Assembly: GCA_965243395.1 (NCBI GenBank)
Contig: CBDEUS010000001.1
Location: 288,001-352,000, forward strand
Direction: 5' to 3'
DNA: 64,000 nucleotides
Source of the DNA: Gammaproteobacteria bacterium
Lineage (GTDB): Bacteria; Pseudomonadota; Gammaproteobacteria; UBA4575
The notes under the pieces were generated by a model that saw only the letters and a program-made list of their open reading frames with translations, made no database searches and was not told where the DNA came from. Within the stretch, counting starts at the first letter, position 1; the number at the start of each line of letters is the position of its first letter. A program made the translations under genes and the position numbers. Positions 26-11,559 of this stretch are shown piece after piece.

Positions 26-409
26 ATGCGGGTTCTTCTAAATAAAGTAGTCATATTTTTATTAGCATTAACGCTTTTGATTAGTCAGTCAATGCCAGCC
101 TATGCGGGTCTTGTAGGCACGAAACAATTAATCGATCAGCAACTCTTAGAATTAGATCGCGAAACATTACTCAATGTTTTTGAACGAGATGAAGCACATT
201 CACTACTGCAAAAGCACGGAATAACGCATAAGCAGGCACAAGATCGAGTCAATGCAATGACAGATCAGGAGATTTATGTATTTGTCCAGAAGTTTGAGGA
301 ACAACAAGCTGCAGGAAGCGTTGGTATTGCTGCAGCTGTGTTAATCATAGTTTTACTCTTTATTGTTTTAGACCTGTCCGGAAAAACAGATGTGTACAAA
401 GGAATTTAA
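26..409 (+). CDS. PA2779-family exported/membrane protein
   Basis: Signal peptide ending PAYA; 'RVNAMTDQE..QQAAG' followed by C-terminal hydrophobic segment ending 'LDLSGKTDVY', typical of this family. Confidence 0.6.
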   Translation: MRVLLNKVVIFLLALTLLISQSMPAYAGLVGTKQLIDQQLLELDRETLLNVFERDEAHSLLQKHGITHKQAQDRVNAMTDQEIYVFVQKFEEQQAAGSVGIAAAVLIIVLLFIVLDLSGKTDVYKGI

Positions 410-1896: not shown

Positions 1897-2045
1897 TCCG
1901 AATTGAATTACTATTAATCTCAAACAAATTGTTTGCATTAACAGAATGCTAAAAATTCATTTTATATTTTTATTAAATTAATAAGTTTTTAGCGGGTAAG
2001 GGCCTAATACACAATCCTGAATAATTAGTTAAGTTACGCTCGGTT

Positions 2046-3248
2046 CTATTTGACAACGCTGCCGAGATCGCTTGCCCATTTTATTGCTTGCAGATAAGCT
2101 TTTCGATATTCGCTATGATCGATCAAATGCATAAGTGTATCCCAGTCACCTTGTTCATAATATTTTATATTCTGAAGCACCTCTCCCATTTTTCCAGTAT
2201 GAGATAATAAGGCTAAACTTACTTCTTCTGTTAAAGGTAATGTTTCAAGAATTTCTTCTAGTGACATATCCATTAATGCATCTAAAATAGAGAATAACCC
2301 AACTGAGAAATATTGATCAGAAACTCCATTAGGATCAGATTTCCCAAGAATTTCTGCCATCTTTGCTCTCATCATTCCAGTGAGCATTAGTTCTTTAGGC
2401 TTCTCGTCTGATAAGCGTAACATCAACATTAAACTTGCCCATTTTCTAACTTCATCCGTACCTAGTAATGTTAGAGCATGTTTAATAGATTCAATTTTTA
2501 TACGCAATGCATAAAAGGCTGAATTCATATAACGAAGTAAGTGATAAGCAAGTGTAGGATCACGTCCAATAAGGTTTTCAAGCTCATCAATATTAACGGA
2601 TGGGTTCTGAAGTTCTGAAATTAATTTGAGAACAATCATTCTATTACCTTCAATTCGTTTCCCTATAAACATTTGAGGCTTACAAAAAAAGAAACCTTGA
2701 AAATAATCGAACCCTAGTTCTTTACATTGTTCAAACTTTTCATGAGATTCAACACGTTCAGCTAAAAGCTTTATCTTGTGACTACGCAATACACTAACGT
2801 GCTTCTGTAAGTCAATATCACTTAAAATACTGACATCTAGTTTTACAAATTGAGAAACTTTTAATAAAGGATCGAACTTTGGGGTATAAATAAATTCGTT
2901 CAGTGCAATTTGAAATCCAGCACGTGATAAGTTGCCTAACCCGGCGATTAGTTCATCGTCAATTACATCATTTTCAAGTACCTCTAACACTATCTGCTCA
3001 TGCATTTGTGGCAAGGGTAGCTCACCAATCAAAAACCCACGTGTCATATTTATAAATGCTAGCTTTGTACCTACAATATTTTCTAGACCGATATCTATTA
3101 ATGCACTAATAATGACATCAGTGGTTGCTTCATCACCATCAACAATGTTTGCATTATTTGAAGCTTTTTTACGATACAAAAGCTCATATGCAAATACATT
3201 CAGTTGACGATCATAGATGGGTTGACGTGCAAGAAATATTACTGCCAT
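2046..3248 (-). CDS. EAL-HDOD domain protein (CdgJ/YuxH-like), degenerate EAL
   Basis: FLARQPI, AYELLYR, VLEVLE, FDYFQGFFF, HDOD 'DPTLAYHLLRYMNSA..GLFSILDAL'; DDF motif reads NEF. Confidence 0.9.
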   Translation of the reverse strand: MAVIFLARQPIYDRQLNVFAYELLYRKKASNNANIVDGDEATTDVIISALIDIGLENIVGTKLAFINMTRGFLIGELPLPQMHEQIVLEVLENDVIDDELIAGLGNLSRAGFQIALNEFIYTPKFDPLLKVSQFVKLDVSILSDIDLQKHVSVLRSHKIKLLAERVESHEKFEQCKELGFDYFQGFFFCKPQMFIGKRIEGNRMIVLKLISELQNPSVNIDELENLIGRDPTLAYHLLRYMNSAFYALRIKIESIKHALTLLGTDEVRKWASLMLMLRLSDEKPKELMLTGMMRAKMAEILGKSDPNGVSDQYFSVGLFSILDALMDMSLEEILETLPLTEEVSLALLSHTGKMGEVLQNIKYYEQGDWDTLMHLIDHSEYRKAYLQAIKWASDLGSVVK

Positions 3249-3354
3249 TTTTATTTAGCTTAATAAAGGGTTTAAATTGCAAAATTAGTCACAACTTAAT
3301 AAACGGCATAATATGGATATTCTTTACGTTTTATTTGATTGAAATGAACCCATT

Positions 3355-3382
3355 CTGACAATTTGGGTATCTGAGCAGTCAT
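3355..3382. repeat. 28-bp palindromic cassette-boundary repeat, copy 1 (degenerate)
   Basis: CTGACAATT-TGGGTATCTG-AGCAGTCAT. Confidence 0.45.
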
Positions 3383-3400
3383 TCTCTCGCAGAAGACTTA

Positions 3401-3526
3401 ATGAATAAATTATTCTAAGGCGAAAAAACACTTCAAATGCTTATTTCTGAACAATTTTTCAGATTATATTGTAGGCAAAAGTACTCTATTGAAGACTATA
3501 ATAAAGTTGCGAGAGGTATTAGATAG
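3401..3526 (+). pseudogene. Possible decayed cassette ORF
   Basis: MNKLF*GEKTLQMLISEQFFRLYCRQKYSIEDYNKVARGIR*; one in-frame stop at 3416-3418; fills the space between repeat copies 1 and 2. Confidence 0.3.
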
Positions 3527-3529
3527 TGA

Positions 3530-3557
3530 ATGACCGCTATTGGCCGAAAGCGGACAT
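3530..3557. repeat. 28-bp palindromic repeat, copy 2 (best conserved)
   Basis: ATGACCGCT-ATTGGCCGAA-AGCGGACAT; arms pair at 8/9. Confidence 0.85.
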
Positions 3558-3585
3558 AATTAGGAAAAATCTAAAGGAGCTTTAG

Positions 3586-3852
3586 ATGCGTTATATAGCT
3601 GGAGTCTTAATCCCTGTAGTGCTTCAATGTTTGTTTGTATTTATTATTATTGAAATGAACACGGGGAATGGTTCATGGATTGGATTAGGTGCACTGTTAA
3701 TAGGTATGTTTGCAATCCCTGCAACGGCTATTATTAATTTTCTCTATATAAAAACAAATAAAGGCCGAAGCACTGTTTCGCTAATGTCACGGTGTTTTTT
3801 AATCGCAATAATAGCGCCTGTAATAATTCTATTATTATTGCTGGTTGGGTAA
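3586..3852 (+). CDS. Small 3-TM membrane protein (cassette gene)
   Basis: AAGGAG RBS; three hydrophobic segments. Confidence 0.7.
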   Translation: MRYIAGVLIPVVLQCLFVFIIIEMNTGNGSWIGLGALLIGMFAIPATAIINFLYIKTNKGRSTVSLMSRCFLIAIIAPVIILLLLLVG

Positions 3853-3858
3853 CAATAA

Positions 3859-3886
3859 ATGTCCGCTATTGGCCGTAAGGAGCGAA
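3859..3886. repeat. 28-bp palindromic repeat, copy 3 (right arm disrupted)
   Basis: ATGTCCGCT-ATTGGCCGTA-AG; spacer 9/10 identical to copy 2; starts 7 nt after the upstream stop. Confidence 0.8.
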
Positions 3887-4032
3887 AACAAGGCCACTGA
3901 GGGAGATATTCAGGTTGGAATCTTTTGAACACATATAAAGTGTAAATTCAGTGGCATTATTTGGAAAAAGAAGAGTGAAACATATTTGAAGAGCATTTTA
4001 CAAAGTGTAACTAATTTATAAAGAGGTTGTGT

Positions 4033-4638
4033 ATGTTTAAATGGAGTTATCTACTTATATTAACATTTATTATTTTAGCTGGTTGTGCATCAACATCAAA
4101 TCAACCAGTCTTTGAATTTGATAGTGGTGATGCAAAAGGTGTATTTGTACCAGTTCGTGTTCACATTAATAGAAATGTACCTGTTGCCCGTTTTTATGAA
4201 TCAAGATTAATCGAAGTTAAAAATACGTTAAAAAGGAGTGGTATGTTTTTAGAGGTAGGATCGCATGTCGATTCTCCTTATGTGTTAGATTTACAGTTAG
4301 AGCGAGGTTCTAATGATAATGCGGTTGATACAACAGCACAGCTACTTTCTGCTGCAACTTTATTTTTACTTCCCTCTAAGGTAAATGGTTATCACATATT
4401 AAAAGCTGACTTATATATCGATGGAAGCTTGCTAAAGAGTTACGAATATAAAGATGAATATGATGAGACTATTAGTATTTATAACTACAATGAGGCTGCC
4501 AGTAATGATGGTGATGAATTTGTCTCCATCCGAAATGTGGTGAATAAACTATTAAAAGGTTTAGATGAAGATGATGTTATTGAAAGATATATCGATAACT
4601 CAAATCAACAAGATACTCCTAAAGAGTATGATATCTAA
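4033..4638 (+). CDS. Lipoprotein, hypothetical (cassette gene)
   Basis: Lipobox LAGC; GAGG RBS before ATG 4033 (ORF track starts at TTG 4027). Confidence 0.75.
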   Translation: MFKWSYLLILTFIILAGCASTSNQPVFEFDSGDAKGVFVPVRVHINRNVPVARFYESRLIEVKNTLKRSGMFLEVGSHVDSPYVLDLQLERGSNDNAVDTTAQLLSAATLFLLPSKVNGYHILKADLYIDGSLLKSYEYKDEYDETISIYNYNEAASNDGDEFVSIRNVVNKLLKGLDEDDVIERYIDNSNQQDTPKEYDI

Positions 4639-4647
4639 TAAGGTAAA

Positions 4648-4675
4648 ACGTTTGCTATAGACCCAAAGCGGACAT
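4648..4675. repeat. 28-bp palindromic repeat, copy 4
   Basis: ACGTTTGCT-ATAGACCCAA-AGCGGACAT; perfect right arm. Confidence 0.75.
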
Positions 4676-4722
4676 GCTAAGCATCATTAATTCATGTATT
4701 GATAAACCTAGAGTAACTTTTT

Positions 4723-5085
4723 ATGGGAAATACCGTTTGGGTGTTAAGCGAAAATAGTGATGAGGATGATTGGGATCACTCATTTATTTTAATAAATGAG
4801 CAGTCACTCGACAAACTCGCAGACCAATTAAGTGTTAAGAAACTAAGTGATTTATACGATCATTCAATTTTGGCAGAAGAATATGGAGAGGATATTGAGC
4901 CAAACTATATAATTCCAGACGATTTAGAATCTGTATTAAATCCTCTGATTACCGCTATTCGTAATGGAGATGCAGGTAAGCTAAATGGTGATACTGAAAT
5001 CATTGAAGAACTTGAAGATTGTTTAGAAAAAGTTTTAAACGCCAAGAGTCGCAGCTCAAAAGTACGACTAGCAATTGTGCCCTAA
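4723..5085 (+). CDS. Acidic hypothetical protein (cassette gene)
   Basis: 120 aa, very D/E-rich. Confidence 0.7.
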   Translation: MGNTVWVLSENSDEDDWDHSFILINEQSLDKLADQLSVKKLSDLYDHSILAEEYGEDIEPNYIIPDDLESVLNPLITAIRNGDAGKLNGDTEIIEELEDCLEKVLNAKSRSSKVRLAIVP

Positions 5086-5098
5086 TTATCCTTTGCGA

Positions 5099-5126
5099 AT
5101 GTTCACAATTGACCGTTAAGAGGCAT
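5099..5126. repeat. 28-bp palindromic repeat, copy 5 (degenerate)
   Basis: ATGTTCACA-ATTGACCGTT-AAGAGGCAT; spacer 8/10 identical to copy 3. Confidence 0.55.
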
Positions 5127-5166
5127 TTAGCGAGAAGCTTTATCGTTCGGAAAATATAAACTAATC

Positions 5167-5400
5167 ATGAAAAAGCTATTTTGTTTTATGTTTATCGGCA
5201 TTGGTGCATTGTTAGTATTTGCAGCAGGTACTATTGGGCTTGGTTTTGGGGCTATATATTTAATGGGTGCAATAGGTACTGGCGGTCGTGAGGGTGTTGG
5301 AGAGCTAGTTACTGTTGTAATGATAGGTGTTGCTGGGTTCGTAGTTGGATATTTTCTGATTCGTATCGGAAGAGGGCTTGGTGTTAGCAATACCCAATGA
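5167..5400 (+). CDS. Small Gly-rich 2-TM membrane protein (cassette gene)
   Basis: 77 aa, two hydrophobic Gly-rich segments. Confidence 0.6.
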   Translation: MKKLFCFMFIGIGALLVFAAGTIGLGFGAIYLMGAIGTGGREGVGELVTVVMIGVAGFVVGYFLIRIGRGLGVSNTQ

Positions 5401-5420
5401 AGGTGTTTCAAAAAATAATT

Positions 5421-5448
5421 AATTTCTATTTACGATCAAAGCGGACAT
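5421..5448. repeat. Palindromic repeat, copy 6
   Basis: Perfect right arm AGCGGACAT at 5440-5448; left arm degenerate. Confidence 0.65.
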
Positions 5449-5493: not shown

Positions 5494-6753
5494 CTACGTA
5501 TCTCTTTCAATAATCATAGCTGCCGCCGTCCCACCTGCGCCACAAATACTAATTAAACCTAAGTGCGAATTTCTGCGCTTCATTTCGTTCGCTAATGTGG
5601 TTGTAATGCGAATACCTGTTGCAGAAAAAGGATGACCTATTGCTATTGAGCTACCTAAAGGGTTTAATTTTTCTTGATCGACTTTACCAATAGCTGGCTC
5701 TTTCCAACCTTGTTCCCATGCTTTTAGATTACAAGCAATTTGTCCTGCAAATGCCTCGTGCATTTCAATAATGTCAAAGTCCGATAGTGAAAGTGAATTA
5801 CGTTTTAGTAATCTTGGCACAGCAAGTGCAGGGCCCATTAACAATCCTTCTCTTGGTTCTATGCCAACAAACTCGAAATCTTTTACATATGCGAGAGGTT
5901 CAAAACTTTTGTTTTTCGCATACTGTTCTGACATTAATAGTATAGAGGCTGAACCATCAGTCAGCGGACTAGAATTTCCTGCCGTGATCGTACCTTTTGA
6001 ACTACGATCAAATACTGGTTTAAGTTTGGCAAGCTTATCTATAGTAGTATCAGGACGAATAAATTGATCGGTTTCAATTCCATCCAAAGGATCTATTTCC
6101 TCAAGTAGGCGACCATCTTGACTTGCTTGGTATGCATTCATATGACTTCGGTAGGCAATTTCATCTTGTGCATCTCGAGAAATGTTCCATTCTTTTACCA
6201 TTAGTTCTGTATGTTCACCCATTGACAATCCAGTAGATGGTTCTTTTATACCAGGTGAAGTTGGTTTGAAATGTCGTGGTCGTAATTTTAATAATTGACG
6301 TATACGCTTTGTATTCGTTTTTTCTGAAAATGCATCTAGAAAAATACGACTTGCCGAACGGCTAAATAAAAGCGCCGGATTTGACATCGATTCCACACCT
6401 CCAGCAATACCGGCTTCAGATCTTCCAGTTGATATTGAATCATAAATGGTTCGGATTGCAGAAAGTCCAGTAATGCAATTGTTTGTTATCGTCAATGCCT
6501 GAAGCTGTGCTGGCAGTTTATTAGCTAAAACAATCTCTCTTGCCAGATGGGGGATCCTTGGATCGACAACAACAATGCCGTAAACAAATTCTTGCAAATC
6601 ATCTTTATTGACATTCGTTTTGTTCAGCAGGCCTCGAACAGAATGTCCAGATAGTTCAAGAGCTGTGTAATGTTTGAAAACTGTGCCCGCGCGAACAAAT
6701 GGTGTACGAATACCATCAATAATTGCAACACGCTTTGAAGGATTAATATTCAC
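5494..6753 (-). CDS. Acetyl-CoA C-acyltransferase (thiolase, FadI-like)
   Basis: IDGIRTPF, NNCITG (catalytic Cys), GGVESMS, HEAFA, GHPFSATG, SICGAGG; GTG start overlaps upstream stop. Confidence 0.92.
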   Translation of the reverse strand: MNINPSKRVAIIDGIRTPFVRAGTVFKHYTALELSGHSVRGLLNKTNVNKDDLQEFVYGIVVVDPRIPHLAREIVLANKLPAQLQALTITNNCITGLSAIRTIYDSISTGRSEAGIAGGVESMSNPALLFSRSASRIFLDAFSEKTNTKRIRQLLKLRPRHFKPTSPGIKEPSTGLSMGEHTELMVKEWNISRDAQDEIAYRSHMNAYQASQDGRLLEEIDPLDGIETDQFIRPDTTIDKLAKLKPVFDRSSKGTITAGNSSPLTDGSASILLMSEQYAKNKSFEPLAYVKDFEFVGIEPREGLLMGPALAVPRLLKRNSLSLSDFDIIEMHEAFAGQIACNLKAWEQGWKEPAIGKVDQEKLNPLGSSIAIGHPFSATGIRITTTLANEMKRRNSHLGLISICGAGGTAAAMIIERDT

Positions 6754-11407: not shown

Positions 11408-11559
11408 TTTCGCCGCGCATTTCCGTCGAAGTTGTCTTATTTAAAGTAGTAAACACTAATATATACGCGTCATCCAAGAACGTATCTTATTCGCGCCTGC
11501 ATGTGTTCACATCCCTGCGATCACAAAAAAATACGAATAAAATTACTAGGCGGCTGAAA
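11408..11559. repeat. Structured intergenic element with two CATCC-loop hairpins (REP/MITE-like)
   Basis: Terminal IR TTTCGCCGC/GCGGCTGAAA; hairpins around CATCCAAG (11471) and CATCCCTG (11510). Confidence 0.4.

Follow-up and report, generated by a model that had tools for sequence, protein, structure and literature searches.

The stretch of DNA analysed here (the window) comprises 64,000 nt of a gammaproteobacterial genome and corresponds to G000:C1:288001-352000, G000 being a 2.58-Mb genome of 38% GC in two contigs (C1 and C2). Between an EAL-HDOD gene and a thiolase gene it holds four small open reading frames (ORFs) on the plus strand, set among perfect and decayed copies of a 28-bp bipartite palindrome. 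These copies are the tail of an array that begins at C1:281223, and the palindrome is a repeat family which in this genome and its relatives punctuates arrays of small, unrelated single genes, whose content differs from one species to the next. A preliminary description of this DNA listed six copies and proposed that they are the sites of a gene-capture system distinct from integrons; the phenomenon is real and much larger than those six copies.

The palindrome consists of two arms, ATGWCYGCT and AGCRGWCAT, flanking a 10-nt spacer whose conserved, asymmetric sequence sets the orientation of each copy. Spacers fall into two classes, A (ATTGGCCGAA) and B (AACGACCCAA). A weight matrix was built from 78 seed copies of G000 and scanned over the genome, a check that the preliminary description had suggested: it recovered 120 distinct oriented copies at a score of at least 12, compared to none in the reversed genome, where one position of 2.58 million scores 10 or more. 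Most of the copies (95/120, 79%) sit in 10 arrays of three or more, and those inside one array all share one orientation. With genes called crudely as longest ORFs, a co-oriented gene is found upstream of 105 of the 120 copies and downstream of 92; the repeat follows the stop codon at a median of 10 nt (18 copies overlap the stop, the TGA lying inside ATGA) and its end precedes the next start codon by a median of 43 nt. Intergenic copies number 93 and another 21 overlap gene ends, and copy orientation agrees with the gene in 105/120 cases and with the GC-skew strand in 90/120. The cargo is diverse: the 144 ORFs in or beside the arrays match 115 different Pfam families (GFA, nitroreductase, HxlR, LysR, DUF899, DUF1428 and Usp among them), in agreement with the earlier proposal that unrelated single genes are stacked, and one unit of the closest species, G012, carries a Cass2-family domain. 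Copies are also located after ordinary genes, such as nuoN and, in Alphaproteobacteria, ABC substrate-binding genes, and many decayed copies adjoin perfect ones.

In the window itself (Table 1), the copies at 3530, 3859 and 4648 are clear and those at 5099 and 5421 are decayed remnants, the latter with a full copy at the matching position of the homologous unit in a relative, G002. The sixth copy listed, at 3355, did not hold: positions 3355-3382 score -13.9 and belong to the 5' region of the EAL-HDOD gene; in G012 this region is conserved and contains no repeat, so that 3355 is not a copy and the "41-codon ORF" assigned to it is not a cassette. The rule of one plus-strand ORF per unit stands for the other four units, and the resemblance that had been noticed between spacers is borne out, these belonging to class A. 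The pattern first proposed, with up to three mismatches, finds 2 sites where 0.03 are expected, and its 10-mer right arm occurs 3 times compared to an expected 0.10, a count reached in none of 100 shuffles.

The genes of the window array are patchily distributed, as had been supposed. The lipoprotein was found in one of the 41 genomes searched, G000 alone, and the acidic protein in three of the 41; for the ORF at 3586..3852 a DNA-level homologue was not found in 5 genomes of the genus. The DNA of the ORF at 5167..5400 is 80% identical in G002, on a different contig and beside a repeat. The EAL-HDOD unit, whose right boundary in the window is the copy at 3530, is 92% identical to G012:C5:111645-113240, where both of its ends lie within repeats and the neighbours differ on both sides; the homology passes through the 3530 copy and stops at about its position 21. 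Likewise, the homology of the acidic-protein unit to G012 begins within the copy at 4648. In the same array region there are two DUF6627 paralogues, 51% identical (window 26-409 and G000:C1:281869-282225), one of just five paralogue pairs among the 144 array ORFs.

Table 1. Palindrome copies, cassette genes and flanking features of the window array (window positions unless a contig is named; scores are those of the weight matrix)
Feature	Position	Strand	Description
EAL-HDOD gene unit	1958..3550	-	gene 2046-3248 on the minus strand and its 5' region
Repeat copy	3530..3557	+	class A spacer (ATTGGCCGAA); exact consensus match; score 47.5
Cassette ORF	3586..3852	+	88 aa; predicted membrane protein; no Pfam family
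Repeat copy	3859..3886	+	class A; decayed right arm; score 20.2
Cassette ORF	4027..4638	+	203 aa; lipoprotein-like N-terminus; no Pfam family
Repeat copy	4648..4675	+	class B spacer (..GACCCAA); decayed left arm; score 31.6
Cassette ORF	4723..5085	+	120 aa; acidic; no Pfam family
Decayed class A copy	5099..5126	+	marginal score 4.7; homologous decayed copy beside the same gene in G012
Cassette ORF	5167..5400	+	77 aa; two predicted membrane helices; no Pfam family
Remnant copy	5421..5448	+	right arm intact and part of a B-type spacer; score -10.1
Thiolase gene, right flank of the array	5494..6753	-	ORF call and comparison with G012
L copy	11458..11523 (C1:299523)	-	inverted partner at G000:C1:281079-281131 (+)

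Turnover of units between species

The arrays are hypervariable. In G012, whose flanking DNA is 84-92% identical to that of G000, arrays at the same loci share no cassette in place. Downstream of the thiolase gene, G012 has one metallo-beta-lactamase-fold-like gene and a tRNA-Met gene and no repeats, and the locus between the homologues of C1:281.7k and C1:299.5k is occupied by about 15 kb of different genes, none of them common in place. No G012 cassette matches the G000 array at C2:536-543k at E ≤1e-25; the matches are confined to the flank and to four 100-nt repeats. Between a tRNA gene and nuoN, G012 in turn carries some 30 units in a 16-kb array, the counterpart of which in G000 is a 58-bp gap free of repeats, and DNA-level homologues of 3 of these approximately 30 units are found in five other genomes of the genus.

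Units have also moved between loci and between species. Cassettes of G012 have homologues at other arrays or repeat loci of G000 (C1:45k, 46k, 282k, 875k and 879k; C2:388k, 593k and 905k). In G012 the acidic-protein unit of the window is a solitary insertion of 730 bp that separates two operon genes; the corresponding site of G000 is empty. Units X (313 aa) and Y (144 aa) are direct neighbours in either species and stand in the order X-Y in G000 and Y-X in G012. A 157-aa gene forms a repeat-flanked unit in G012 and G001 and occurs in a different, repeat-free context in G002, G003, G005 and G011 (L193-L197), where about 120 nt of conserved non-coding leader precede it. The preliminary description had asked whether cassette content and order differ between genomes with breakpoints inside the repeat: content and order do differ between species, and homology often ends in the repeat, as at the EAL-HDOD, acidic, Y and 157-aa units. 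Neither of the outcomes that it had named as refuting it, the same gene order in relatives lacking the repeat or a repeat scattered after core genes with no tie to gene gain and loss, was seen.

Several observations concern tRNA genes. In G000, two tRNA-Met genes (C1:232100-232176 and C2:543265-543341) are each separated by 118-119 nt from where a large array ends, and the homologue in G012 adjoins the thiolase locus; from this placement, G000 and G012 differ by a rearrangement with breakpoints at arrays. A local reversal of GC skew extends across C2:510-560k. In the interval that separates the tRNA gene from the first repeat of the large array in G012 (L098 700-1070, contig C1) the 3' end of the tRNA is directly repeated about 200 nt downstream, which has the look of a scar left by an integrase-mediated insertion.

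A second repeat family, L, accompanies the palindrome. The L element is about 70 nt long, has 29 copies in G000 at E ≤1e-3, and is composed of two hairpins with A[T/G]GGAT loops whose stems show many compensatory changes among 40 aligned copies. For 16 of the 29 copies the start falls at -14 to +7 nt relative to the stop codon of a gene in the same orientation, and 14 of the 29 have a palindrome copy no more than 100 nt away on the inner side. The inverted pair listed in Table 1 brackets the whole 18-kb variable locus that holds the window array; the homologous bracket in G012 (L096 4775-4837 and L097 98-164) encloses different content, and an inverted L pair also brackets the 730-bp insertion of that species. 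Since L was found in 14/14 other genomes of the genus, including one without palindromes (G014), as well as in one other genus, its distribution is unlike that of the palindrome. With its two hairpins, AYGGAY-like loops, repeat arrays at a fixed short distance and oppositely oriented pairs, L resembles the TwoAYGGAY RNA of Pseudomonas fluorescens SBW25, downstream of which arrays of repetitive extragenic palindromic (REP) sequences occupy a fixed position in Pseudomonas according to a 2026 preprint (10.64898/2026.09.22.753630). Unlike that RNA, L is unmatched by the RF01731 (TwoAYGGAY) model at E up to 10, its pairs bracket whole cassette arrays, and its range, one genus and one further genus, is not that of the 28-mer.

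Composite unit, junctions and distribution

The two spacer classes are parts of a larger unit. In 31 composite units drawn from G000 and from fetched parts of G012 and G002 the order is always A, conserved linker, B, with a start-to-start spacing of 73 nt in 25, 83 in 4, 59 in 1 and 117 in 1; the full A-linker-B unit measures about 101 nt, and regular arrays open with linker-B and close with A. Among 102 copies, no compensatory stem changes were found in the 28-mer, paired arm positions varying independently (positions 6/23 are C-G in 32, T-G in 29, T-A in 9 and C-A in 25). Single copies fold weakly, from -6.4 to -8.4 kcal/mol, and the conserved spacer is unable to pair. A folded single-strand unit was considered and rejected on account of the weak consensus folds of the composite (-2.3 for the top strand and -9.7 for the bottom strand). 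Because the arms lack covariation and the spacer is conserved yet unpaired, the alignment points to a site that would be recognised by a protein as double-stranded half-sites, rather than to a selected hairpin. No target-site duplications around the units were seen by eye among the 31 aligned units; one clean insertion, a single case, shows a possible AAA microhomology.

The ends of homology give an indication of where exchange may take place. Homology ends within repeats at the EAL-HDOD, acidic, Y and 157-aa units, and for Y, for the 157-aa unit and for the right end of the EAL-HDOD unit the shared block takes in the right arm of the preceding repeat, the unit itself, and the left arm and spacer of the repeat that follows. 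When mismatches were counted, the left arm plus spacer was better kept than the right arm in 3 of 7 downstream repeats, and in upstream repeats the right arm was the least changed part in two of three and tied with the left arm in the third. This pattern is compatible with a crossover close to where the spacer meets the right arm and falls short of establishing one; exchange would then occur within the repeat itself, possibly near that border.

The palindrome is distributed well beyond the genus. The arm pattern, with at most one mismatch, was found in 24 of 41 relatives including G000 itself; these include 13 of the 14 remaining members of the genus, five further genera in its family and a single genome from a different family, copy counts within the genus range from 28 to 184, and the reversed-pattern control was 0 everywhere. 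A stricter pattern, searched in one genome per species, matched at least 120 stretches; among the matches listed are metagenome-assembled genomes labelled Pseudolabrys, Xanthobacteraceae, Hyphomicrobiales, Maricaulaceae, Phenylobacterium, Sphingomonas and a betaproteobacterium, along with Lysobacter soli and a Pseudoxanthomonas. In five such genomes the copies number 81, 62, 24, 14 and 42 (control 0). The 28-mer with its small-ORF arrays thus spans from gammaproteobacteria of 38% GC to genomes of 55-65% GC in other classes. On a 4.1-Mb alphaproteobacterial chromosome (56% GC at the scanned locus) small ORFs are separated by two-site units with spacings of 45 or 91 nt, in which the B spacer is the same and the A spacer is a variant of its own. 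An exact match is present in 22 of 401 genomes of an even phylum sample, therefore the distribution is patchy. The family most frequently encoded beside the alphaproteobacterial copies is the ABC substrate-binding family, with 20 members.

Candidate enzymes and rival explanations

No recombinase is present in the window, as the preliminary description stated when it suggested an enzyme acting in trans, and for the families searched none was recognisable in the genome. G000 has five tyrosine recombinases, two Xer-like and three phage-type, and the XerC- and XerD-like genes are the only recombinases common to G000, G011, G001 and G019. In G019, which belongs to another genus, three tyrosine recombinase genes that look paralogous (375-379 aa, each of them on the minus strand) lie interspersed among repeat-delimited units at C1:1243000-1262000 (L200); no counterpart of these three tandem-like integrases was seen in G000 or G011. 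A REP family driven by a REP-associated tyrosine transposase (RAYT) was rejected: there is no match to PF01797 (Y1 transposase, RAYT) in G000, matches occur in 7 of the 41 family genomes, and 0 of 6 such loci carry the palindrome within 1.5 kb. RAYT is also absent from the repeat-rich G012, G011, G019 and G062, and of the five genomes with counted copies mentioned above two have a Y1 transposase. A likeness of the 9-10-9, 28-bp geometry to the crossover site of Tn3-family resolvases led nowhere, G000 having no resolvase. Intrinsic terminators and linker promoters were rejected as well, on 0 terminator-like sites in a regular array (L084 1000-5400), compared to 2.3 expected in shuffles, and on a promoter scan passed by just 1 of 6 linkers in L084. 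Apart from tRNAs, no Rfam family matched the units, and the composite unit was unmatched in plasmid and phage collections. In the literature, supplementary files excepted, no description of the site or of palindrome-delimited cassette arrays was found; 14-letter motif strings were absent from the literature searched and 11-letter strings appeared solely in unrelated, mostly eukaryotic papers.

Our preferred reading is that a mosaic repeat resembling REP sequences and bacterial interspersed mosaic elements (BIMEs) serves as the joint of a system that shuffles single-gene cassettes and has no recognisable enzyme, and we judge it to have an even chance of being right. According to the mechanism proposed, small unrelated accessory genes, each trailed by the palindrome in some ten arrays of the genome, would be the units of exchange. 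A conserved, putative DNA-binding factor would recognise the palindrome as double-stranded DNA; such a factor is implied because the same 28-mer is found with the same small-ORF arrays in other classes. The palindrome would then be the joint through which arrays gain, lose and reorder single-gene units and pass them to other arrays, the exchange being catalysed by a site-specific enzyme of no recognised family or, alternatively, produced by homologous recombination between conserved repeats of 28-101 nt after DNA uptake. A bolder version would make the 28-bp site the recombination site of a widespread integrase-free cassette system of Alpha-, Beta- and Gammaproteobacteria, where an unrecognised enzyme family or a co-opted host factor cuts at a fixed point near the border of spacer and right arm and inserts, excises and reorders units, and where arrays start after the stops of core genes; we regard this version as unlikely, with a chance that is nonetheless real. 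As to the gene-capture system originally proposed, the arrays of unrelated genes, their turnover and the lack of integron features hold, and the role of the repeat as a recombination site is not established, neither an excision or circle junction nor an enzyme having been found.

Several results weigh against the cassette-shuffling reading. The repeat has clear REP/BIME traits, which the preliminary description set aside, and many copies are decayed and therefore not all are maintained. Family searches of G000 returned no Y1_Tnp, IS110, rve, resolvase or DDE_Tnp_1, and G011, with 97 repeat matches, has just three tyrosine recombinases. Beside the alphaproteobacterial copies, no recombinase or transposase was among the 25 most frequent Pfam families of the 148 ORFs scanned, a further 92 ORFs beside those copies lying outside that scan. 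The junction test is mixed: 2 of the 7 downstream repeats show no difference between their parts and 2 show the opposite (both have decayed left arms). Breakpoints inside repeats are in part trivial, because repeats fill most of each intergenic gap and breaks between genes would come to lie in or close to them under any mechanism, and variable gene stretches without repeats exist, for example at L096 5.8-15.5 kb. The comparison with sequencing runs, made on assembled contigs throughout, found the stretch complete in four runs of one sample and in small shares in metagenome runs; every joint in these Logan contigs had sides of 20-32 nt on repeat copies and was treated as a repeat artefact, and no excision product, circle or empty-site variant was seen in the Logan contigs.

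The explanation that competes most closely is a passive one, in which the palindrome is a selfish or RNA-level extragenic repeat (a stabiliser or processing site of 3' ends) that piles up in the gaps of islands made hypervariable by transformation, phage or island traffic, and marks joints without making them. The form of the repeat agrees with it, being a short imperfect palindrome, extragenic, just past stop codons, with two variants and a conserved linker, as do the birth-and-death pattern of decayed copies beside perfect ones, the copies after nuoN and after the alphaproteobacterial ABC substrate-binding genes, and the variable stretches free of repeats. The passive explanation is less easily reconciled with the missing compensatory changes, the weak folding of single copies, the lack of terminator-like sites in the regular array, the absence of RAYT from G000 and from the four other repeat-rich genomes, and the absence of the repeat from the six RAYT loci in relatives. 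In addition, 79% of the copies sit in arrays of tightly packed single genes, and REP families are usually species- or genus-specific, so that a 28-mer conserved between classes would be unusual for one. On the other hand, REP arrays are reported at a fixed position beside TwoAYGGAY RNAs in Pseudomonas (10.64898/2026.09.22.753630), and the look-alike L abuts the palindrome in 14 of 29 copies. In sum, we consider the passive explanation possible and rather unlikely. An operator or architectural site placed before each cassette gene, to which a dimeric regulator or a nucleoid or topology protein binds (for instance a silencer of acquired genes, or a protein acting at a gyrase-type site, such sites being present in the BIMEs of Escherichia coli), would account for half-sites that vary independently, for the median of 43 nt to the next start codon and, through a conserved host protein, for the conservation across classes. 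We find it improbable, given that a co-oriented gene is more often upstream (105/120) than downstream (just 92/120), that the conserved asymmetric spacer and the A-linker-B unit are left unexplained, and that homology ending in the repeat is not accounted for.

Two site-specific systems have to be weighed as well, and both appear very improbable. The arrays might be integron remnants (clusters of attC sites lacking integrases, CALINs) with the A-linker-B unit as an unusual attC; its length of 73-119 nt, the two-site architecture, the single promoterless ORFs, the many arrays per genome and the diverse cargo, including the Cass2-family domain in G012, are in keeping with this, and true integron integrases (IntI over the curated cut-off) are present in 5 of the 41 family genomes (G015, G044, G054, G056 and G014; L076-L080). 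G000 itself has no IntI over the cut-off, the best TIGR02249 match reaching 83.4 bits vs 265. No palindrome copies lie within about 10 kb of the five intI genes, including that of G015 with its 110 repeat matches elsewhere, and the cassettes beside two of these genes (L077 and L079) end in classical RYYYAAC/GTTRRRY-type sites. By inspection of the 31 aligned units and the window, such boxes were not found at the ends of the repeat, the sole TAAC lying in the B spacer, in the 3' sub-site. An attC or integron assignment was rejected on the missing IntI, the absence of copies near the five intI genes and the classical attC beside those of relatives. Within the family, G014 has an integron and no 28-bp palindromes, and G015 has both. 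Alternatively, the units could be Xer-dependent modules comparable to the pdif modules of Acinetobacter plasmids, which the site length of 28 bp and the XerC- and XerD-like genes as sole recombinases common to the four genomes would permit. G000 has a canonical dif-like site of its own at C1:959290, at the GC-skew switch, whose sequence is unrelated to the palindrome; a Xer/dif-type site was rejected because the arms are unlike the host dif and the copies, all in one direction within an array, do not alternate in orientation. The preliminary judgement that the repeat is neither attC nor dif-like nor an intrinsic terminator is therefore upheld by the IntI, dif and terminator results alike.

Significance and likeness to known systems

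To our knowledge, integrons are the only well-understood platform that stacks single promoterless genes. An integron-like architecture, with many arrays, diverse cargo and fast turnover, is built here with a different and shorter site. If the site is used catalytically, there is a new recombinase, or a host enzyme put to a new use, still to be discovered, and tools that look for attC alone miss a whole class of arrays; under the bolder version given above, it would represent a second, independent solution to the problem that integrons solve. If it is a passive REP, the palindrome is still unusually conserved and offers a clean system for the study of how REP-like repeats shape the flux of accessory genes. 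Either way, it provides a simple sequence handle for mining cassette metagenomes in these lineages.

The system is best filed as REP/BIME-like in form and integron-like in genome architecture. It shares with REP/BIME elements of Enterobacteria and with the REP-derived REPINs of Pseudomonas a short imperfect extragenic palindrome located just after genes (on these families, see PMC2817692 and PMC3733652). Further common traits are the mosaic build, with a conserved linker connecting two variants, copy numbers in the tens to hundreds, and decayed copies beside perfect ones. It differs from them by a genome without RAYT, by having neither a GTAG nor a CGTC tag, by the lack of compensatory stem changes, by an orientation that is tied to the gene, by the 79% of copies in arrays with one small accessory gene per interval, and by a 28-mer common to several proteobacterial classes.

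Similar to integron arrays and CALINs, promoterless, co-oriented and unrelated single genes each have a two-part site of about 70-120 nt behind them (on CALINs, see PMC4889954). Several integrase-free arrays per genome, a fast change of content and units that move between arrays are also characteristic of both. Unlike integrons and CALINs, the palindrome arrays lack attC boxes, any link to an integrase and any sign of a folded single-strand substrate. The true integrons of the same family, for their part, rely on classical attC sites and are free of these repeats. Discrete modules bounded by 28-bp sites and found in varied contexts are likewise known from Acinetobacter plasmids (pdif modules); here, in contrast, the arms show no relation to the host dif, all sites of an array are direct instead of alternating, and the arrays are chromosomal and contain dozens of units. 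Finally, the intergenic mosaic elements of Neisseria with dRS3, and the minimal mobile elements of that genus, also consist of short inverted-repeat sites that punctuate arrays by variable or silent cassettes, and in Neisseria exchange has been attributed to transformation and recombination at conserved repeats. The palindrome arrays are unlike these elements in their unrelated sequence, in the other taxon in which they occur, in the absence of an IS110-type enzyme from G000, and in the intact gene that each interval contains.

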